Source: Escherichia phage EC106. Taken from it: a DNA stretch of 64,000 nucleotides. Position numbers and translations under genes: made by a program. Of this stretch, positions 2,639 to 15,960 are shown piece by piece. Each line of letters opens with the position of its first letter. Positions within the stretch are counted from its first letter, which is position 1. The DNA lies in sequence record ON210138.1; one strand, 5' to 3'. The notes under the pieces were generated by a model. It had not been told where the DNA came from, did no database searches, and worked only from the letters and a program-made list of their open reading frames with translations.

Positions 2639-3451
2639 TTACTCTTGACTGTAATAGTTGACAAGTGAAATTGCTTGATTCATCAACAGCTTATCAGCCT
2701 GTGCTCCGCGACCAGCTTGTAATGCTAGTTGGTATACCTCTGTAACATATTTGTTAGACATACCTTCACAGTAATCGTTATAATCCTCCCAAAAGGAGAA
2801 TGCAGCATCACCATATAGGCGTAATGTGATTAGCATTGCTGCACGGATACCAGAAGAGTACTTGCGTTTTGCGTTTACTACACCTTTAAGCTGTACTTCA
2901 AGAGAATCAATTTGTTCCAACTCATTCTTAAAATCATTAAGGTATTTAACTGTTTCAGTGTTAGATACCTGTTGCACACCATAGTATGCAGCAACATACT
3001 TAATGGCAGTAGCCCAAGATGCTTTCATCAATTCTGATTCTGGATTGAAAGAAATCATCTTCATATTCCCGTAATAAACCTCTGAAGGTTTCTCTCTTGC
3101 TAATTCAGAGTCAAAATGAGTATACAAATCTGTGACATCCAATATAGAGTTCACATGGTATATAACTGCAATCAGGTTATCTGGTCGTGTCAGGTTACCA
3201 ACCTTCCATGCCTCTCGACGTGAGTGTCCATCAATAATAAACAGTGAACTGCCAAACTTAGCTACATGGACTACTGTTTGGTCTGGTGACACATCACCAT
3301 TAAGGTGCTTACTCTTCAGACGTTTCAGTGTATTTCTCTGACGAGGATTTTCTTTGTAGCGTTTCTCGTTAAGGAAATCCTCAACACTGATAATCTTAGT
3401 GTGCATTTTAACAACTTTACCGTTCAGTGCTACATTGATGCTATTTGACAT
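2639..3451 (-). CDS. ParB/Srx-like domain protein (paralog of 6418-7257)
   Basis: IDGHSRREAW motif resembling the DGHxR core of ParB-like nuclease/CTPase folds; clear similarity to 6418-7257. Confidence 0.45.
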   Translation of the reverse strand: MSNSINVALNGKVVKMHTKIISVEDFLNEKRYKENPRQRNTLKRLKSKHLNGDVSPDQTVVHVAKFGSSLFIIDGHSRREAWKVGNLTRPDNLIAVIYHVNSILDVTDLYTHFDSELAREKPSEVYYGNMKMISFNPESELMKASWATAIKYVAAYYGVQQVSNTETVKYLNDFKNELEQIDSLEVQLKGVVNAKRKYSSGIRAAMLITLRLYGDAAFSFWEDYNDYCEGMSNKYVTEVYQLALQAGRGAQADKLLMNQAISLVNYYSQE

Positions 3452-3462
3452 AACTTTATACC

Positions 3463-4347
3463 TTAGTTGTGGATAATTACTTCGTTAATACCTTTGCTTC
3501 TCTGTGCATGTATTGTGTATGAATGATTAACCTCTGTCAAGTGAAAATTTTCAGGAATTAGGTTTATCCATCCGTCCCACTGAGAGTTTGACATTAACAC
3601 CTTAGAGCCTAACTCCCCCCAATCAGACATATCTTTGCACAATTTCACAGACATTGAAACGTCGAACTTTGCGCCATATTTCTGGTTGGTGTTTATATAT
3701 GGTGGGTCACAGTAAATGACCGTCCCTTCTCCATGCTTTATGTCAACCATATCATAAGAGTGACTGCTGAGGACAACCCTCTCATCAGTGATGAAGTTAT
3801 AGAACTCCTTTAGTGCTTCTTCAGTCTTTGTAAAGAAAACTTCTTCTTCCATCAAATAGCCGCAAGGGGTTGCATAGTGCCCTTTCATCTCTTTAGTTGT
3901 CTGCCATACACCACCAAAACTTAGTTTCTGAAGGAAAAACTGTCTGGCATAGTATCTGTAGTCATAGACACCAGATTCACCAAGCGTGAGAAGCTCGTCT
4001 CTTACACTGTAGTACATCTTATAACGTAATCGGTTATGGCGTTGCCCCTTCATAGTGTACTCTTCCTGCATAGGTAATGCTAAGTACCTTTTTGCCAAGT
4101 ACCGAAACCCTTCCATGAATTTGTCATAATCATCCCTGAAGGTTATGTAAAGCTCTATGATATGCTTGTTTATCTCATTAATAAATATTTTTGCTTCTGG
4201 GTACTTATTGTAAGCCCAGATAGCTACTGAGCCACCACCTGAAAACAGGTCATAGAAGTTTTTACAGTTGTCTGGAAAGACACCTAAACGCTCATATTCT
4301 TTCAGTATTCTTGTTTTACCGCCAAGATACTTAAACATTGGTTTCAT
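3463..4347 (-). CDS. dam: Dam-family N6-adenine DNA methyltransferase
   Basis: KYLGGK N-terminus, FSGGGSV (motif I) and CDPPY (motif IV). Confidence 0.85.
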   Translation of the reverse strand: MKPMFKYLGGKTRILKEYERLGVFPDNCKNFYDLFSGGGSVAIWAYNKYPEAKIFINEINKHIIELYITFRDDYDKFMEGFRYLAKRYLALPMQEEYTMKGQRHNRLRYKMYYSVRDELLTLGESGVYDYRYYARQFFLQKLSFGGVWQTTKEMKGHYATPCGYLMEEEVFFTKTEEALKEFYNFITDERVVLSSHSYDMVDIKHGEGTVIYCDPPYINTNQKYGAKFDVSMSVKLCKDMSDWGELGSKVLMSNSQWDGWINLIPENFHLTEVNHSYTIHAQRSKGINEVIIHN

Positions 4348-4364
4348 TAGTACTCCTTGAATTT

Positions 4365-6180: not shown

Positions 6181-6182
6181 AG

Positions 6183-6443
6183 TTACATTACGTAGAGGTT
6201 CCCAAAACCTGTAGGTTTCCCATTACGAAAGTTACGACGCTTAACAGGTAACTTAGTGATAGTTTTCGTCTTCTCTAAGTCTATAAAGGTCTGTGTAAAA
6301 TCCGACGGGAGATATTTTTTACCAAACTTTGCAGAGAGGTACTCTGCTACTTCGTATTGTGTAGCTGCCCCCAGATACTTGAGAGCAACCCTGACCATCA
6401 TCTTTTTAACTTGCATATCAGTCCTTATAAGCTCTAAATGCAA
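6183..6443 (-). CDS. hypothetical protein
   Basis: ORF in operon context only. Confidence 0.35.
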   Translation of the reverse strand: MHLELIRTDMQVKKMMVRVALKYLGAATQYEVAEYLSAKFGKKYLPSDFTQTFIDLEKTKTITKLPVKRRNFRNGKPTGFGNLYVM

Positions 6444-7257
6444 CGTCAGCTTGTGACATTACATAACCTTGAAACACACCACCATTCTGGTCATACTGGG
6501 TCTTCATGGCATCTAAGAAGCTGCTTACAGACTCATCATCATCACGGTAGTCCAACCAGAACTTTGTAGCCTTTTCAGGGTTTTCTTTGAAGCTCTTAAG
6601 CATTGCTGCCATAATTGGAGCAGAGTACTTTTTACGCAGTTCACACTTCTGCTTAACACCGTTTACAGTCTTCTCTTTGTACTTATCCATCTCATCCTTA
6701 TTAATGCCAAGTGCATCAATAAGTTTAAGCTCTTCTTGATAGAGTACAAATGCTTCATCAAGGCATCCACGGAGACCTAATAAGGCCCACACACCAGCAC
6801 CAGTAAATTTCTTGGTGAACGCTGTCTGTGGCTTATAACCAGAGCGTAGTATTGCAGTTGTAACTTGGTCACCATTTGTGGCTCGTGAGTCCAGTGAGTT
6901 TTCTTGGTCGTAGAGGAAATCTACTTCTTCCTGTGAATTAACGGCAAACAGTGTCACATAGACAAGTCCGTTCTTGGGAGCACCTAACTTACCATTCTTC
7001 CAGTTCTCTACGCGCGCATGAGAATCAATGTTGATAACTTCTCCATTGAATAGTACACCCGTAACACGGGAACGTAAATCCACCTCACGAAGTTCTTCAT
7101 TAAGGTAGGGTTTAGCAATTCGTCGTTCAATGCTACGGTTTGCTGAGTAAGGCTTTGCACAGTTAGCCCAATCCATGTACCCCATGAAGAAGGAAGCTAC
7201 ACCACAAACGAAATCAATCTTGCAAGGTGTTTTGCTCTGGAACTCTTTGAATTTCAT
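6418..7257 (-). CDS. ParB/Srx-like domain protein (paralog of 2639-3451)
   Basis: IDSHARVENW motif and shared KYSxxxxAAML...FW C-terminal block with 2639-3451. Confidence 0.45.
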   Translation of the reverse strand: MKFKEFQSKTPCKIDFVCGVASFFMGYMDWANCAKPYSANRSIERRIAKPYLNEELREVDLRSRVTGVLFNGEVINIDSHARVENWKNGKLGAPKNGLVYVTLFAVNSQEEVDFLYDQENSLDSRATNGDQVTTAILRSGYKPQTAFTKKFTGAGVWALLGLRGCLDEAFVLYQEELKLIDALGINKDEMDKYKEKTVNGVKQKCELRKKYSAPIMAAMLKSFKENPEKATKFWLDYRDDDESVSSFLDAMKTQYDQNGGVFQGYVMSQADVAFRAYKD

Positions 7258-7262
7258 AGTTG

Positions 7263-7281
7263 CTCTCTCTCTCTCTCTCTC
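7263..7281. repeat. (CT)9 dinucleotide microsatellite
   Basis: ctctctctctctctctctc in intergenic spacer between methyltransferase and ParB-like genes. Confidence 0.9.
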
Positions 7282-7324
7282 ATCTACTAGGTTTGTTTAC
7301 AGGTATACTATATAAATTCTTTTA

Positions 7325-8224
7325 TTAATGCAAGTGTTTTTCTAAAGTATTTATAATTTCTTGTGAGTTGATAGAGCCTGCATAACTCAGTGCAAAACCA
7401 TCTCTCAAATCATTAAACCATTCTTGTTTGATTGCTGAGTAAAGTCCTTCTATGTGTGGTTCGATAAACTGTTTCACTGACACCTTGTCTTTATCTGGTT
7501 CAAAAGCCTTCACAGTACCAGCCTTGCGACCATGCGTGATAATCGTGAACAAGTCTTTGCCATCTAGTTTACCTAAAACACCAACTGGCTGCTCTTTACC
7601 ATCAATCTTGTGACATGGTGGTCTGTATAGTGTGAATTTCTCACGCTTATAGACTCTTACACCATCAACTATCACAGGGGCAATCTTACAAATTTTATCT
7701 GCCCGTTTTTGTCTCTTCCAGATTTGGAAGTTACAGCGTAGTGATGACTCTTTTGCTGAGTAGGCAACTCCATCAATCCTTTCAAAATGAAGGTTAGGTA
7801 GCTCTACTTCATCAATGCAGGTGTACTCTCTGCTAAGTCTGCTAAGATTCTTCTTCCCAAAGTTAATAGGAACTAGGAAGCAAATGTAGTCTGGATTCAT
7901 TGTAGCAGCCTTGTTAAAGAACTTTGTAGACAGACTGTTTGCCTTACCAAATGGAGGGTTGGTAACAATCGCAAAAGGCTTATCTGGAATTTCTAAGTCA
8001 TCTTTCAGGAAGTCTCTTGTGCTAACATCTTCAGAGTCTGGTTCGATGTCGTATAGCACAACATCTTGACAAACCCTCTTAAAAGAGTCTTTCCATCTTC
8101 CGTCACCTGCACAGGGGTCTATAATGCACGAAATAGAGCCTTTAAAGACCTTTTGTAGCTTCTCTTCACACACTCTTATTACTTCGTCTGGTGTGTAGTA
8201 TTTATCAAGTTCTGCTTTAGCCAT
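7325..8224 (-). CDS. gamma-class DNA methyltransferase (N6-adenine or N4-cytosine)
   Basis: YYTP, IDPCAGDG (motif I) and NPPF (motif IV) in gamma-class order. Confidence 0.7.
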   Translation of the reverse strand: MAKAELDKYYTPDEVIRVCEEKLQKVFKGSISCIIDPCAGDGRWKDSFKRVCQDVVLYDIEPDSEDVSTRDFLKDDLEIPDKPFAIVTNPPFGKANSLSTKFFNKAATMNPDYICFLVPINFGKKNLSRLSREYTCIDEVELPNLHFERIDGVAYSAKESSLRCNFQIWKRQKRADKICKIAPVIVDGVRVYKREKFTLYRPPCHKIDGKEQPVGVLGKLDGKDLFTIITHGRKAGTVKAFEPDKDKVSVKQFIEPHIEGLYSAIKQEWFNDLRDGFALSYAGSINSQEIINTLEKHLH

Positions 8225-8238
8225 TCATCCTCCCATAT

Positions 8239-8272: not shown

Positions 8273-9379
8273 TTAAACGTGTGCTGTCTTGGAGATTAAC
8301 TCACCGTGAGAACCAATCACTACACGATACCCACCAGAGCCAGAGTGAGTCTTGATAACTTTACGGTTGCTGTCAACAATCGCAAAAGACTCATAAGCTG
8401 ATACACGCATCTTCATATCGTTGTAATCAGTCGGGACAGATACAACATCTCGTGGGTGGACACGAACTTTCAGGATGGTATCACCTCCAAAACATGATAC
8501 GTACTCCCATGCACCAACATGTAAACCCTGAGAGCAAGTGCGGTTAGGGTCACTGTCAACCATCCAACGAGGCATCTCAACTAGGTTACCCAAATCATTA
8601 GGCACTTTGTGGGTGTGGCTGTCTACCAGAGAACCATCAGCTTTGCTTTGTACCTTTTTCCAGCCGATAATGTAACCTTCTTCATCAATTTCAACATCAA
8701 GGTGAGATATGAAGCCCCAAAGTTGTTCTACAGAACCTTTAGATGGGTTTTCCATCAGTTTTTCGAAGAACATTACAAGTCGTTCAAAACCTTTATCACC
8801 AGTCTTCATCATGTGAAGAATACGGTCAACCAGAGTAGAACGCATCTCAACAGCACCGTAGAATAACTTGTCACCTTTGATTGTGATAGCGCCCTGAGTG
8901 AAGTTTTCGATAGACTTACGAATGTTCATCAGTTCAAAGGCTTTTTTGAACTCACCTTTCACAACATGAACTACAATCTCTTGATAGTTCGGATGAGTAG
9001 ACTCAACAATTTCAGATTCTGAACCATAAGTCATAATTACAGAGTCACCAGTAATCATGTACTCAATCTTGTCATCTTTCTGCATAGCTTCGTGCAGTTT
9101 ATTTACTGGAGCTTTCTGTACAGACTCTTTAACAACCTTTTCAACTGGTTTGCCAGCTTTCTTTTTAAAGGTCTTAGCAACTTGCTTCAAAGTCTTCGTA
9201 GCTGGTGTAGAAGTCACCTTCTTATTTCCTTTTAAGGTTGCTTCATGACGCTCTACAGCACGACCAACTGAACGGGTTGAAGTATTAAATTTCTGTGCAA
9301 TAGCTGTTTTAGTCAGCTTGCCCTCTTTAACCAGTTTGTAAATTTCTGCGTCAATCTGTGATTTAGTTTTAGTAGTCAT
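8273..9379 (-). CDS. rIIB: rIIB-like protein
   Basis: blocks recalled from T4 rIIB: LFY..E.RS.LVDRIL, NPS, CSQGLHVG, KVRVHPRDVVSVPTDYND.KMR. Confidence 0.8.
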   Translation of the reverse strand: MTTKTKSQIDAEIYKLVKEGKLTKTAIAQKFNTSTRSVGRAVERHEATLKGNKKVTSTPATKTLKQVAKTFKKKAGKPVEKVVKESVQKAPVNKLHEAMQKDDKIEYMITGDSVIMTYGSESEIVESTHPNYQEIVVHVVKGEFKKAFELMNIRKSIENFTQGAITIKGDKLFYGAVEMRSTLVDRILHMMKTGDKGFERLVMFFEKLMENPSKGSVEQLWGFISHLDVEIDEEGYIIGWKKVQSKADGSLVDSHTHKVPNDLGNLVEMPRWMVDSDPNRTCSQGLHVGAWEYVSCFGGDTILKVRVHPRDVVSVPTDYNDMKMRVSAYESFAIVDSNRKVIKTHSGSGGYRVVIGSHGELISKTAHV

Positions 9380-11853: not shown

Positions 11854-12030
11854 TTACTTATTAAACATTTTACCAGAACCACCACACATAGGGCAACAAC
11901 CTGCTCCTGTATACCCTTCCCCATTGCAGTAATCACACTTCTTGTGCTCTGCATAGTACTTGCAAAGAAGGTAAACAAAGACTGCTACACTACCAAGTGA
12001 CAGTAAAATTTCTATCCAATACGCTTGCAT
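11854..12030 (-). CDS. small membrane-anchored zinc-ribbon protein (58 aa, below ORF-track cutoff)
   Basis: hand translation MQAYWIEILLSLGSVAVFVYLL...CDYCNGEGYTGAGCCPMCGGSG. Confidence 0.3.
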   Translation of the reverse strand: MQAYWIEILLSLGSVAVFVYLLCKYYAEHKKCDYCNGEGYTGAGCCPMCGGSGKMFNK

Positions 12031-12347
12031 GACTCACCTCTCATATTCTTGTAAAGGATAAAGCTTCTGTCATGGACGATACTTGTAGACACTGCAAAGT
12101 TACTTTCAAGCATCTGTTTGTTTGGATTGTAGAAGCTTTCTTTAAACTCGTCAAGTGCAAATTGGTGATGTTGCGGAAGACCTTTTACACAGACCTTTAT
12201 TGTGATTGCTGCTGCGACCTTGCCAGTCAGTTCTTCTTTAGCTGCTACCAAGATTTTGTTAAGGAACTTATGACCATCTTCAGGCTTCTTGATGTTCTCC
12301 CAACGTTCTTCTAAGACAATGTTGATGTTCATCTCTTTGATTTTCAT
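12012..12347 (-). CDS. hypothetical protein
   Basis: ORF in operon context only. Confidence 0.35.
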   Translation of the reverse strand: MKIKEMNINIVLEERWENIKKPEDGHKFLNKILVAAKEELTGKVAAAITIKVCVKGLPQHHQFALDEFKESFYNPNKQMLESNFAVSTSIVHDRSFILYKNMRGESCKRIG

Positions 12348-12364
12348 AGTTTTCTCCAGAAATT

Positions 12365-12385
12365 AAAAAGGCTCCCGTAGGAGCC
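12365..12385 (-). terminator. rho-independent terminator downstream of the NAMPT-like gene
   Basis: GGCUCC-UACG-GGAGCC + U5 on minus strand. Confidence 0.7.
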
Positions 12386-12400
12386 TCTTATCATATACTT

Positions 12401-14182
12401 TTAAAGCTGCTTGTCAATATTATTTCGAATATCACCAAGAGTTGTGTAGCCGAACTGCTCAGAGTCGCTAAAGACTAAACGTAAAGCACAAGCTGGATGT
12501 TCAAGTGCATCTGCAAAGCTCTGGAACCCATAGCCATCTACAGCTTTCAGATTCTCACCATCCCACATGGGTGCTACACCACCAAAAGCAGACTTCTTAA
12601 CACCACTATCTGTTTTAGGGTCTTTTGCAAGCATAATCTCTTTACCACCAATGCTTGCAAGAGTTGCTTTGACAGCAAATGCAAAGGTGTCACGAGTAAT
12701 GTACTGGTAAGTGTAAGAACCTACACCAAACACTACGTTAGAGCTTGCAAAACCCATTTCATACAAACGCTTCAGGATTTCGTTTGCACGTTCCAACGTG
12801 ATAGAGTCACCATAGATAAGTCCGATATGCTCATCCAGTACCTTAAAACCTTTAGAGTTGATAGTTCCCCCAAAGATGTTGTACAATGTCTTAATAGCTC
12901 CATCAATCTCAGCTACAGGACGTGTTACAACGTTTGCAGAACCAACCATATAAGCATTTTTCAACATCACTGTATCAGCAACTTCGAAGTCTTCTCTGTC
13001 AACAACCATCTCGTAGCCTTCTGACAGTAGCCATCCAGCAATACCATAGTTGATGTCTTCAAGCTTCATGTTTAGAACAGAGTTCAGCATTGTATCACTA
13101 GCTTCCAGCTTGCTAAGATGTTCGTAATAAGCCTTTTTAGCACACTCTAAGTGGATTGCTTTATAACCTGTGACAATATATACAGGGTCTCCAGAGTCAG
13201 GGCGAATTACCAGTTTGCCATCACGTTCCATAATTTCTTTACGGAGTGCTGGTAAGATTTCTGACACAGTTCTCCAGAAGTTATAAGTATCTGAAACAAC
13301 ACTTGCAATACCAGTTGGATAAGTTTCTGTTAAGAAACGACGGAAGGTTTGTAACTCACCTTTAAAGCGTCTTTCTTCTTCAATCAACTCATTACCACCT
13401 TCCCAAGCAATGTTTGCACACATTACAGAGTGCTCAGTGGCTGGTACAGAGCTACCAATATCAGAGATTGGGTAGGACTGTCCATAGATTCGTTTAGCTG
13501 TATATACAGCAGGGAAGCTATCAGTCCCTTTAAAGCTGGTTAAGTGGCCTACAGCGTTAAATGCGTCATCAGTAAAGCCGGACATACCACGCATAGCAAA
13601 GTCATGGCACTGATAAGGTAAATGCAAGTCGTTGTCACAAGTAAGGTCAGCCCACTTCTTACAGATACGTTTGTAGTGCAATGCAATAGTTGCAATGGTA
13701 CAAGCCTTCCAAATCTCAGCAGAGAAAGCATCTTCCAGATACCCCGCTACCCAATGGAAACCTGAAACAGTGTTCTGGAAGACAATCATTGGTACACGCA
13801 TAGGGACAACTGTGCCTTCTTCTACAGCGTATACTTCAACTGGTAGATAACCTAAGTCATGAAGTGCTTCCCAATGCTCTCGACCAATAGCACCTTTACC
13901 CAGAACACCGTTCATGACTTCTAAGATTTCGTCAATTGCTTCTTTTTTATCACGTTCAAAGAAGGTGGCATTCCAATGGTCTATCAAGTAATCTTTAACG
14001 AAACGTTGAATACCAAAAGCTACTACACCATCAATTGCTAAAGGGCTGTTAAACCATTTATCGCTACGTGGTGTCAGGTTCAGCATAAGGTACTGTGTGG
14101 CATCTGGATACTGATATATATGTGATGCCTTGTAAGCATCTGCGTTTAAACCTGCTGGTACTGCATAAAGTGATTTAGTCAT
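12401..14182 (-). CDS. nicotinamide phosphoribosyltransferase (NAMPT/NadV) family protein; candidate NARP1 Namat
   Basis: 593-aa protein read as NAMPT-like by overall resemblance; immediately downstream of the PRPP-synthetase-like gene. Confidence 0.75.
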   Translation of the reverse strand: MTKSLYAVPAGLNADAYKASHIYQYPDATQYLMLNLTPRSDKWFNSPLAIDGVVAFGIQRFVKDYLIDHWNATFFERDKKEAIDEILEVMNGVLGKGAIGREHWEALHDLGYLPVEVYAVEEGTVVPMRVPMIVFQNTVSGFHWVAGYLEDAFSAEIWKACTIATIALHYKRICKKWADLTCDNDLHLPYQCHDFAMRGMSGFTDDAFNAVGHLTSFKGTDSFPAVYTAKRIYGQSYPISDIGSSVPATEHSVMCANIAWEGGNELIEEERRFKGELQTFRRFLTETYPTGIASVVSDTYNFWRTVSEILPALRKEIMERDGKLVIRPDSGDPVYIVTGYKAIHLECAKKAYYEHLSKLEASDTMLNSVLNMKLEDINYGIAGWLLSEGYEMVVDREDFEVADTVMLKNAYMVGSANVVTRPVAEIDGAIKTLYNIFGGTINSKGFKVLDEHIGLIYGDSITLERANEILKRLYEMGFASSNVVFGVGSYTYQYITRDTFAFAVKATLASIGGKEIMLAKDPKTDSGVKKSAFGGVAPMWDGENLKAVDGYGFQSFADALEHPACALRLVFSDSEQFGYTTLGDIRNNIDKQL

Positions 14183-14227
14183 CTTTTAATCTCTCTCAAA
14201 ATGGGGCTTTCAAGCCCCTATAAACTT

Positions 14228-15127
14228 TCAATCAAGGTTTGCTACAGTAACTTGACTATAATGTGTTAAGCTACGGTCTTTAGCTTCCCCTAAAGAGTTT
14301 GTAGTGTAAATGTGGTCAATACCATTGTCAAGAAGGTTTTCAACACCTTTAGAGAAGACACCATGTGTTACATAGAGTTCCACACGTTTTGCACCTGCTT
14401 TACGAAGATGTTTAGCTGCTTCTATGAATGTTCGACCACCATCACAGATATCGTCGAGAATCATAACAGTTTTATCTGTCAAATCAACATCATCAAGGAT
14501 TCGCATACCAGTAATTTCACCAGTCTTAAGGTTACGCACTTTAGACATTGTGATATATGGTTTATCCACCTCTTTAGCAGTCTCTGCAATCTTCTTAGAA
14601 GCACCTGCATCTGGGGCTACTAAGTAATCAACCAGAGGGTCATTCGCATAGTGAACTGCGACTTCCTTTTGAGGAATGCTTTGGAAGCAGTTAAATAGGT
14701 TGTCTGGTACATAACTGTGAGGGTCAACTGCACAGACTGCACCAAACCCCATTGCATTAACCTGTTTAGCAAAAACCTTCAAAGCTGCTGCATCACCTTT
14801 AAACATGTGACGGTCATATCGTGCATTCGGTAAGTAGTAAAAAATGACAGTCTTTAAGGCATATTCATGAGGAACTAAATCATCAATTGCTTCTTTAGCA
14901 AGTGCCACAGCAAACAGTGTGTCTTTGTCATAACCCTTTACAATCATAACCACATTGTTAATAGATGATGCTGCATAAGCAGTGAAATCAACAAGCTCTT
15001 GTGAAAAGTGTCCACCAATCTCACCAGAAGGGAACTGGATGATGTTAAGCTCTTCTTCATGAGACCCTTTTGTCGGTGAATGAATTATAACACGGATAGA
15101 TGTTTTCATAGTTTTACTCTCAATCAA
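14228..15127 (-). CDS. ribose-phosphate pyrophosphokinase (PRPP synthetase) family protein; candidate NARP1 Adps
   Basis: VAPDAGA and ILDDICDGGRT phosphoribosyl-binding motifs, YVTHGVFS. Confidence 0.8.
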   Translation of the reverse strand: MIESKTMKTSIRVIIHSPTKGSHEEELNIIQFPSGEIGGHFSQELVDFTAYAASSINNVVMIVKGYDKDTLFAVALAKEAIDDLVPHEYALKTVIFYYLPNARYDRHMFKGDAAALKVFAKQVNAMGFGAVCAVDPHSYVPDNLFNCFQSIPQKEVAVHYANDPLVDYLVAPDAGASKKIAETAKEVDKPYITMSKVRNLKTGEITGMRILDDVDLTDKTVMILDDICDGGRTFIEAAKHLRKAGAKRVELYVTHGVFSKGVENLLDNGIDHIYTTNSLGEAKDRSLTHYSQVTVANLD

Positions 15128-15398
15128 AAGTTACGAATGTCACAGCCATAGCTGTTTTGCATTTTTGTGGATTCACAATGTGATAGATTACTGAACAGTT
15201 GCCTGTGCTATCTGGTACTGGTTTTGTCCAAGTGTGTTCAACATTTGGTTCACCTAGTTCTTTGTAGAATCCGTTTGTGTGATGGTCAATCATCTCAAGA
15301 GCTAATGGGTCTGGTATATGGCCACGAATCATATACATCTCACAACCATTTCCAGCATCACTTATTAGGTCTTTTATTTCCCAATCTGCTTTAGCCAT
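15120..15398 (-). CDS. hypothetical protein
   Basis: ORF in operon context only. Confidence 0.35.
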   Translation of the reverse strand: MAKADWEIKDLISDAGNGCEMYMIRGHIPDPLALEMIDHHTNGFYKELGEPNVEHTWTKPVPDSTGNCSVIYHIVNPQKCKTAMAVTFVTFD

Positions 15399-15906
15399 TG
15401 TAAGTTGCCCTATAAACTGTCTCGAACTTCAACAGGAGAGATATTGCCAAATCTGTATAGTTGTTGTCAAGCACATCTGGCATATTATTTTTGATATATT
15501 TCTCTTGCTCTTCATAGGTCATCTTAGAGGTGCTTAAAAGACTATCTCCTTGCTTCTGATTATCAAGTTTAGTCTGGATAAACCAGTTTGCACAGTGATG
15601 CTCACCACCCTTTGTAACAGGTTTGTGGTGGCCTAATGTGAAGGATTGACTACCTGTGTATCTGCAAAGTTTATTGAGTACTGTAATGGTGTTCTTCACA
15701 ACAAAACATTCATACAGGTTGTCTATGGTGTAGTATGGGTAATATCGGAATAATGCTCTTTCACGAGTACTCTCACGATTCCAGAGAATCATGTGATTGG
15801 AGTTGGAAGGGTCATATTGGTGGGAGTCAATGAACTCTTGACGTTCCTCAAAGCTGAGTCTTAGAACTGACATTGCAGCCGAACGTTTCAGGTTTGACAG
15901 GTACAT
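15391..15906 (-). CDS. hypothetical protein
   Basis: ORF in operon context only. Confidence 0.4.
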   Translation of the reverse strand: MYLSNLKRSAAMSVLRLSFEERQEFIDSHQYDPSNSNHMILWNRESTRERALFRYYPYYTIDNLYECFVVKNTITVLNKLCRYTGSQSFTLGHHKPVTKGGEHHCANWFIQTKLDNQKQGDSLLSTSKMTYEEQEKYIKNNMPDVLDNNYTDLAISLLLKFETVYRATYNG

Positions 15907-15960
15907 AGTATCTCCATAAAAATAAAAAGGGAACCTTTACAGTCCCCTTATAGTATCTGT

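Follow-up and report, generated by a model that had tools for sequence, protein, structure and literature searches.

The neighbouring Prs-like and NAMPT-like genes of Escherichia phage EC106 raise the question of whether they carry out a classical salvage route or form a pathway that protects the phage against NAD+-depleting immunity. The window analysed here is a stretch of 64,000 nucleotides of this phage (ON210138.1), for which an earlier sequence-only reading proposed an Adps/Namat module of the NARP1 type. We are highly confident that positions 12401-15109 hold the two-gene NARP1 (NAD+ reconstitution pathway 1) of Felixounavirus. The earlier proposal is borne out by orthology to gp79 and gp80 of Bas63 (76% and 97% identity, respectively), by the same gene order and by the presence of the selectivity-clamp helix (SCH) motif. 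The identity of the pair is thus supported by orthology, synteny, motifs and predicted fold, and its probable chemistry and anti-defence phenotype are taken from published experiments on the orthologs. The EC106 NARP1 operon is an already known system and not a novel one. Its two genes are:

14228-15109, minus strand: adps, predicted ADP-ribose pyrophosphate synthetase (Prs family), 293 aa, ortholog of Bas63 gene 79
12401-14182, minus strand: namat, predicted nicotinamide ADP-ribose transferase (NAMPT-like), 593 aa, ortholog of Bas63 gene 80

The mechanism given in the earlier reading for NARP1 agrees with the published papers. An NAD+-depleting defence (e.g., SIR2-HerA, type I Thoeris, DSR1/2 or SEFIR) would split NAD+ into ADP-ribose (ADPR) and nicotinamide, Adps would then move pyrophosphate from ATP onto the 1'' position of ADP-ribose to give ADPR-PP, and Namat would exchange the pyrophosphate of ADPR-PP for nicotinamide, yielding NAD+ directly. 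An adenine clamp, formed by a K42/W43 loop and by Y490 and Y494 of the motif GSYTYQYITRD, would give Namat its preference for ADPR-PP over PRPP. With NARP1, a single two-enzyme pathway, phages can evade a wide range of unrelated immune systems that deplete NAD+. EC106 is predicted to withstand SIR2-HerA, Thoeris I and defences of the DSR type, but to remain sensitive to aRES, which produces ADPR-1''-P. The assignment also improves the annotation of EC106, as the database labels of its relatives still read ribose-phosphate pyrophosphokinase and nicotinamide phosphoribosyltransferase.

The EC106 stretch is a Felixounavirus genome, colinear with that of Bas63 (JohannRWettstein), the phage whose genes 79-80 led to the discovery of NARP1 (bioRxiv 10.1101/2024.02.11.579819, 2024). 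Deletion of these genes lowered plating on SIR2-HerA and abolished both NAD+ restoration and the appearance of ADPR-PP in infected cells (bioRxiv 10.1101/2024.02.11.579819). That preprint (bioRxiv 10.1101/2024.02.11.579819) also includes a repeat of the growth experiment in a host without pncC and nadR. In an independent knockout screen of Bas63, loss of either gene led to a 10^4- to 10^6-fold drop in plating on Sir2-HerA, which was restored by complementation. The two phages share the genus, the site of the operon between the nrdG region and rIIA, the gene order, both insertions in Namat and the clamp residues, whereas they differ in the Adps allele (76%) and in a small gene downstream of Namat, bas63_0081, which EC106 lacks. 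The order of adps followed by namat with a 45-nt spacer also matches FADO, ICP1 and SPbetaL1. The same NARP1 operon occurs in hundreds of Felixounavirus genomes.

The adps and namat genes lie co-oriented on the minus strand, adps first, with a 45-nt spacer and no intervening gene. Both are read from that strand up to an intrinsic terminator, and a second hairpin lies in the spacer:

12366-12389, minus strand: intrinsic terminator at the operon end, 10-bp stem AAGAGGCUCC / GGAGCCUUUU, loop UACG, followed by a U-run
14203-14218, minus strand: spacer hairpin GGGGCU-UGAA-AGCCCC, then AUUUUG and the Shine-Dalgarno of namat, GAGAGAG

The terminator had been described as a UUCG hairpin at 12365-12385; the element is real (-16.6 kcal/mol, z=-3.7, with none of 200 shuffles folding as well), but its loop is UACG. 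The spacer hairpin (-12.6 kcal/mol, z=-2.9) is identical in Bas63, where the spacer is likewise 45 nt long, and it may act as a partial terminator or as an element of RNA stability or processing.

Two further genes precede adps:

15120-15906, minus strand: two tightly packed genes, encoding proteins of 171 aa (15391-15906) and 92 aa (15120-15398)

Their ORFs overlap each other, leaving a 10-nt gap before adps, and they are possibly co-transcribed with it, since they are sited between adps and a terminator-like site at 15927-15949, upstream of the 171-aa gene. The 171-aa protein is 97% identical to bas63_0077 and the 92-aa protein 68% identical to bas63_0078. In Kolesnikvirus SB18 the former is kept upstream of NARP1 (44%), whereas the 92-aa protein is not conserved at that place. 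A shared function of the two genes, judged by their conservation beside NARP1, was considered and set aside, as whole-genome synteny in the Ounavirinae explains this conservation equally well; the two genes are context, outside NARP1.

The tight packing of these genes with adps could also indicate that the pair acts with an extra phage enzyme. This could be the Nmnat/Nudix known from KVP40, the Macro-domain ADPR-1''-phosphatase Adpp of NARP1-AP or an RyR-domain cADPR glycosidase (RyDEP), and such extended operons do occur in other phages. However, adps and namat follow each other without an intervening gene, and Namat belongs with the Adps-associated enzymes rather than with Nampt. Macro, RyR, CTP_transf_like and NUDIX domains had no match in the four flanking small proteins, two on each side (Pfam, NCBIfam, PHROGs), and the RyR domain PF02026 none in the flanking proteins (Pfam). 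No Nmnat is annotated in the colinear Bas63 or was found among the EC106 flanking and EC106-specific ORFs scanned; the segments specific to EC106 hold methyltransferase-like genes only (Pfam). We regard a NARP2-type or extended pathway as extremely improbable, and a NARP2 assignment was rejected because Adps and the clamp motif are both present and Nmnat is absent from the Bas63 annotation and the ORFs scanned. As no gene for a Macro-domain phosphatase, an RyR-domain glycosidase or an Nmnat was found beside the pair in the ORFs scanned, the locus is read as plain two-gene NARP1.

The upstream gene had been reported as a Prs homolog at 14228-15127. Its Prs-like character, orientation and position upstream of namat hold, but not its start, which is most likely the ATG at 15109, preceded by a GAGAG Shine-Dalgarno. 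The TTG at 15127, which overlaps the stop of the preceding gene, was rejected, as both Bas63 gene 79 and the phage allfine protein are annotated from the corresponding ATG. The two motifs quoted earlier are present, as LVAPDAGASKK and MILDDICDGGRTF. The protein matches PF00156 (1.2e-11), PF14572 (4.8e-09) and phrog_619 (2e-96) and scores 122 bits against TIGR01251 (cutoff 113); the two Pfam matches likewise exceed their cutoffs. It shares 97.3% identity with the Adps of phage allfine (MN850633_00112), 76% with Bas63 gp79 (bas63_0079) and 27-30% with the validated Adps of SPbetaL1, FADO and ICP1, and it is of the same allele type as wV8 Adps. Osterman Supplementary Table 1 (bioRxiv 10.1101/2024.02.11.579819) lists the allfine and wV8 Adps, each with a Namat neighbour. 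A Namat gene lies at most 10 genes away in 97% of the Adps clade (bioRxiv 10.1101/2024.02.11.579819), and in EC106 namat begins 45 nt after adps, as expected of a clade member. The catalytic lysine of Adps is also in place:

14540-14542, minus strand: codon of Adps Lys190, equivalent to catalytic Lys162 of SPbetaL1 Adps and to Lys197 of B. subtilis Prs

This column is invariant in an alignment of the EC106, Bas63, SB18, SPbetaL1, FADO and ICP1 Adps (K-x-R-N/D-x-x-T-G-E/D-I), and the K162A exchange in SPbetaL1 Adps led to the loss of NARP1 activity (bioRxiv 10.1101/2024.02.11.579819).

The names attached to both genes by Pfam, NCBIfam, PHROGs and GenBank annotations agree with classical salvage, in which the Prs homolog would turn ribose-5-phosphate into PRPP, the NAMPT homolog would join PRPP and nicotinamide to NMN, and host NadR/NadD would complete NAD+. 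Against this, Adps falls far under the cutoff of every bacterial Prs equivalog model (NCBIfam), and it reaches only 45-68 bits against solved Prs structures. By the published table and the model cutoffs, EC106 Adps is assigned to the phage Adps clade and not to cellular Prs. SPbetaL1 Adps converts ADPR and ATP to ADPR-PP in vitro and uses ribose-5-phosphate poorly (bioRxiv 10.1101/2024.02.11.579819), and EC106 Adps probably likewise makes ADPR-PP rather than PRPP. The enzymes purified in the literature (SPbetaL1, DyoEdafos, Vibrio phage Gary, Paenibacillus) are 27-30% (Adps) and ~46% (Namat) identical to those of EC106.

The second gene had been called a NAMPT homolog of 593 aa at 12401-14182, which is confirmed by the ORF and by matches to PF04095 (E=1.6e-34), PF18127 and NCBIfam NF006629 (E=1.1e-140). 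It is 97% identical to bas63_0080 (gp80) over its full length, with the same size and insertions. Its best sequence match in the PDB is SPbetaL1 Namat (9w5w/9w5x, E=3e-127; mammalian NAMPT, E~1e-40), for which crystal structures are available (NAR 2026, PMC12774641). Structure comparison with characterised Namat, suggested earlier as a check, gives the same picture, the AF2 model (pLDDT 93.9) being closest to 9w5x/9w5w in Foldseek (TM 0.95), with HdNadV and mammalian NAMPT ranking behind. The catalytic core D15, Y17, F195, R198, D221, H251, R327 and D329 is kept in full (D13, Y15, F189, R192, D215, His245, R306 and D308 in SPbetaL1), and the NAD+-contacting residues are all conserved or conservatively replaced in the alignment with SPbetaL1. 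Both parts of the clamp can be located:

12689-12721, minus strand: SCH of Namat, GSYTYQYITRD, aa 488-498, fitting the published consensus
14048-14074, minus strand: selectivity-clamp loop (SCL) of Namat, TPRSDKWFN, aa 37-45, with K42 aligned to SPbetaL1 R40 and followed by W43

The consensus of the SCH is GS-X-Phi1-X-Phi2-X-Phi3-TRD, with X aromatic (NAR 2026, PMC12774641). In the alignment, Y490 and Y494 take the places of F392 and Y396, which stack on adenine in SPbetaL1 Namat, and Phi3 is Ile in EC106 and Met in Bas63 (Asn/Val in the consensus). The SCL residues are identical to those of Bas63 Namat, which has been described as carrying a Lys with the next residue stacking; the stacker of this loop is either an Arg or the residue after a Lys/Tyr. 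These motifs and the 97% identity to Bas63 gp80 suggest that EC106 Namat prefers ADPR-PP and forms NAD+ directly.

Namat enzymes still convert PRPP to NMN in vitro (bioRxiv 10.1101/2024.02.11.579819; PMC12774641), so that some classical salvage activity is possible. However, SPbetaL1 Namat offered both ADPR-PP and PRPP formed NAD+ only, and ADPR-PP was found in infected cells only when Bas63 genes 79-80 were present (both bioRxiv 10.1101/2024.02.11.579819), while the ADPR-PP clamp motif of EC106 Namat is missing in true Nampt. Considering this, we find it very unlikely that classical salvage is what the pair performs, and NARP1 is retained.

Comparison with other known systems further delimits the EC106 pair. 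Cellular Prs and NAMPT/NadV have homologous folds and share pyrophosphoryl transfer from ATP and PPi displacement by nicotinamide, but differ in that Adps fails all bacterial Prs equivalog cutoffs and Namat is marked by the adenine clamp. The NARP2 system of the KVP40 type, NadV (Nampt) with NatV, shares the NAMPT fold, the catalytic core and NAD+ restoration under NAD+-depleting defence, whereas its Nampt (~30% identical) uses PRPP, lacks an Adps partner and needs Nmnat. Where Namat carries the aromatic clamp, the KVP40-type Nampt of ValKK3 reads GGGLLQQLDRD. With SPbetaL1, the EC106 pair shares the catalytic residues, the SCH motif class, the overall fold and the catalytic Lys of Adps, but identity is 46% for Namat and 29% for Adps, the SCL has Arg40 in SPbetaL1 and Lys42-Trp43 in EC106, and SPbetaL1 Namat (491 aa) is devoid of both insertions:

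13364-13411, minus strand: insertion 1 of Ounavirinae-type Namat, aa ~258-273 (~16 aa), directly after the catalytic His251 strand
12902-13165, minus strand: insertion 2 of Ounavirinae-type Namat, aa ~340-427 (~88 aa), after the RPDSGDP catalytic strand

The unusual length of the NAMPT homolog had been taken as a possible sign of an extra domain. The length is real and is explained by these two lineage-specific insertions, shared with Bas63 and common to the Ounavirinae; a fused foreign Pfam domain was rejected as its source, as the only matches are NAPRTase and NAMPT_N, split around the insertion. Insertion 1, absent from SPbetaL1, FADO, ICP1 and bacterial homologs in the alignment, varies in length among the homologs bearing it and appears in the AF2 model as extended helices 251-262 and 268-287. 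Where EC106 has aa 340-427, SPbetaL1 Namat has the linker GDPEAKDELVRK. Insertion 2 is confidently modelled as a small subdomain of the alpha/beta type, for which no structural relative could be recognised, and no discussion of it was found in the NARP1 literature examined. Judged by their position in the sequence, both insertions follow catalytic beta-strands and should therefore lie at the catalytic face of the barrel.

The loose ends of the locus are this subdomain of Namat and the occurrence of two divergent alleles of Adps. The insertions may add a function beyond that of the 491-aa SPbetaL1 Namat, such as docking of Adps to channel labile ADPR-PP, gating of an enlarged pocket or evasion of a host inhibitor. 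Similarly, the N-terminal divergence of Adps, which occurs in two allele classes although the neighbouring Namat is 97% conserved, may result from selection by an Adps-targeting host factor. We consider this proposal speculative and rather unlikely. The 24% of Adps positions that differ from Bas63 are concentrated in the N-terminal two-thirds, with ~50-70% identity over the N-terminal 90 aa and 88-97% in the C-terminal third, and this divergence is part of a ~750-bp block of divergent DNA that also spans the upstream 92-aa gene.

Both neighbouring minus-strand ORFs proposed from the sequence alone were found in the window, and they very probably encode an Adps and a Namat acting as NARP1, the two-gene NAD+ reconstitution pathway, with chemistry and phenotype carried over from their orthologs. 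The orthology and synteny of the pair, its diagnostic motifs and its predicted fold support this reading. The finding is already known, i.e., the ortholog of the type example is re-identified.

12401-14182, minus strand, namat (NAMPT-like), 593 aa, downstream ORF of the pair
14228-15109, minus strand, adps (Prs-like)
12366-12389, terminator closing the operon, strong hairpin and U-run with a UACG loop
9459-11825, minus strand, rIIA homolog, just downstream of NARP1
8273-9379, minus strand, rIIB homolog, just downstream of NARP1

The 593-aa ORF matches NAPRTase/NAMPT_N (Pfam) and NF006629 (NCBIfam, E=1.1e-140). The Prs-like ORF, in which the previously quoted motifs VAPDAGA and ILDDICDGGRT were both recovered, matches phosphoribosyltransferase and Prs-associated domains and scores over the cutoff of TIGR01251, and far under that of all bacterial Prs equivalog models. 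The sequence-only reading had placed this gene at 14228-15127; the ORF holds, but not its TTG start at 15127 (299 aa), the most likely start judging from sequence context being the ATG at 15109, which gives 293 aa as in annotated orthologs, is preceded by a GAGAG ribosome-binding site and lies 10 nt past the stop of the preceding gene. Likewise, the proposed UUCG terminator exists as a hairpin and U-run, but its loop is UACG. The two genes are separated by a 45-nt spacer without any gene, which contains a hairpin (GGGGCU-UGAA-AGCCCC, then AUUUUG; 14203-14218, minus strand) of identical sequence in Escherichia phage JohannRWettstein (Bas63). This hairpin may set the Adps:Namat ratio, either as a leaky terminator or by affecting transcript stability. 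In Salmonella phage SB18 (Kolesnikvirus), an HNH homing endonuclease gene (L006:3475-3972, in the SB18 sequence) lies exactly between adps and namat, thus the spacer is a tolerated insertion site.

Matches to the 3.5-kb region come from 257 phage records at 90-96% identity, nearly all of them Felixounavirus, with Escherichia, Salmonella and Shigella as hosts. The entire window is colinear with positions 2887-64318 of Bas63 (MZ501086) in reverse orientation. The pair corresponds to bas63_0079 and bas63_0080, annotated as ribose-phosphate pyrophosphokinase and nicotinamide phosphoribosyltransferase, respectively, and in both genomes the operon lies between the nrdG region and rIIA. The window (12347-12401) lacks bas63_0081 (345 bp, L002:6509-6853 in the Bas63 sequence), a small gene that in Bas63 follows the Namat terminator and precedes the next gene; several relatives carry ~350 bp of additional sequence at this site, seen as two-piece matches.

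NARP1 was discovered in this operon of Bas63 (genes 79-80), the deletion of which lowered plating on SIR2-HerA cells, abolished NAD+ restoration and removed a new metabolite, ADPR-pyrophosphate (ADPR-PP), from infected cells (bioRxiv 10.1101/2024.02.11.579819). In the same study, purified Adps of SPbetaL1 pyrophosphorylated ADP-ribose, and its Namat formed NAD+ from ADPR-PP and nicotinamide, preferring ADPR-PP over PRPP. An independent genome-wide Bas63 knockout study observed a 10^4-10^6-fold plating drop on Sir2-HerA after loss of either gene, reversed by complementation. These experiments contradict the main alternative, in which the pair would serve classical PRPP/NMN salvage, and so does the clamp motif of Namat. 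Namat has been distinguished from Nampt by a selectivity-clamp helix (GS-X-Phi-X-Phi-X-Phi-TRD), with aromatics stacking on the NAD+ adenine, and by a variable loop adding another stacking residue, either Arg or, as in Bas63, Lys/Tyr followed by the stacking residue (PMC12774641). The window Namat has this helix (GSYTYQYITRD, aa 488-498) and the loop TPRSDKW, with K42 and W43, whereas the KVP40-type Nampt of NARP2 reads GGGLLQQLDRD at the clamp site. All NAD+-contacting residues of SPbetaL1 Namat are kept or conservatively changed (S190 to A196, A362 to S460, F392 to Y490), as are, unchanged, the catalytic His (H251) and R327, the counterpart of R306.

The assignment of this protein to Namat is also in agreement with its 97% identity to Bas63 gp80 across all 593 residues; Bas63 and allfine Namat are listed as 'Adps-associated' (Table 2 of bioRxiv 10.1101/2024.02.11.579819). 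Its AlphaFold2 model (53 homologs, pLDDT 93.9) best matches SPbetaL1 Namat crystals in the PDB (TM 0.95), with H. ducreyi NadV and mammalian NAMPT lower, and a PDB sequence search gave the same order (429 bits to SPbetaL1 Namat vs ~140 bits to human NAMPT). Bacterial homologs of 496 aa (P0068, P0074-P0077, P0109-P0113) on Erwinia, Klebsiella, Cronobacter and Phytobacter chromosomes (contigs of several Mb) have the Namat-type clamp GSFTYQYNTRD, in line with the NARP1 homologs already described from bacteria (PMC12774641).

The extra length initially suspected for Namat was confirmed and consists of two insertions relative to the 486-498-aa homologs of SPbetaL1, FADO, ICP1 and bacteria.

aa 258-273, insertion 1, ~16 aa, after the catalytic-His strand
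aa 340-427, insertion 2, ~88 aa, after the RPDSGDP strand

The site of insertion 2 is a hot spot, where minimal forms have 25 aa and other lineages have 42-103 aa that vary in sequence. Insertion 2 is modeled as a confidently folded alpha/beta subdomain, and its position after catalytic beta-strands suggests, from general barrel architecture, a location on the catalytic face. Homologous insertions are found in proteins whose names point to phages of Yersinia (vB_YenM_P778), Pectobacterium (Arno162) and Salmonella (SB18, Ounavirinae Kolesnikvirus). Since Bas63 Namat also carries it, the insertion is compatible with NARP1 function; it is discussed in neither the discovery preprint (bioRxiv 10.1101/2024.02.11.579819) nor the structural paper (PMC12774641).

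Adps is 76% identical to Bas63 gp79, and a tblastn survey revealed two allele classes in Felixounaviruses (~154 records share at least 90% identity with the window Adps, ~94 share 60-80%, the Bas63 class). The window-type allele is already catalogued: the allfine protein is 97.3% identical, and allfine and wV8 Adps are listed with 'Namat within 10 genes: Yes' (Supplementary Table 1 of bioRxiv 10.1101/2024.02.11.579819). In the alignment, K190, equivalent to SPbetaL1 K162, is conserved within K-x-R-N-x-x-T-G-E-I. A ~750-bp block (14610-15360) has 67-81% DNA identity to Bas63, with flanks at 90-97%; it takes in a 92-aa upstream gene, whose protein is 68% identical, and the part of adps encoding the N-terminal two-thirds. 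Together with the two allele classes and a Felix O1 Adps that appears chimeric between them, this sequence pattern suggests allelic replacement via recombination.

NARP1 is also known in extended forms: NARP1-AP adds a Macro-domain ADPR-1''-phosphatase, and some loci carry a cADPR glycosidase of the RyR-domain type. For the two genes on either side of adps-namat, Pfam, NCBIfam and PHROGs gave no match to a Macro, RyR, Nudix or nucleotidyltransferase domain, and Bas63 has no annotated Nmnat. By gene content, the operon is plain two-gene NARP1 and, by published logic, should not counter aRES-type defence.

A 171-aa protein (15391-15906, minus strand) is 97% identical to bas63_0077. A knockout-screen preprint, which calls bas63_0077 GIY-YIG, reports that it counters the Ec67 retron, and also reports Bas63 g84/g85 as counters to QatABCD. 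Considering these reports, NARP1 and the rIIA and rIIB homologs just downstream of it, ~8.3 to 15.9 kb appears to be a counter-defence cluster with experimental support for its genes. The 171-aa protein gave only a weak HNH-endonuclease PHROG match, with a GHH...N...Q motif, and a homolog (44% identity) lies upstream of NARP1 in SB18. The homolog of bas63_0083 (a 'putative membrane protein' by annotation) is a 58-aa protein (11854-12030, minus strand) with a hydrophobic segment at the N-terminus and a zinc-finger motif resembling that of DnaJ (CDYCNGEGYTGAGCCPMCGGSG). Two window segments have no counterpart in Bas63 and may be anti-restriction cargo.

2650-4352, a 270-aa unknown protein and a Dam-like D12-class N6-adenine methyltransferase (3463-4347)
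6181-8233, 86-aa and 279-aa unknown proteins and a 299-aa protein (7325-8224) with a weak N6_Mtase match

The first half of phrog_12872 (547 positions) matches Adps and the second half Namat, and the Shigella phage Ag3 entry in Supplementary Table 1 (Osterman; bioRxiv 10.1101/2024.02.11.579819) reads as an Adps-Namat fusion. Thus, NARP1 seems to occur also as a fused single polypeptide, barring annotation or frameshift artefacts.
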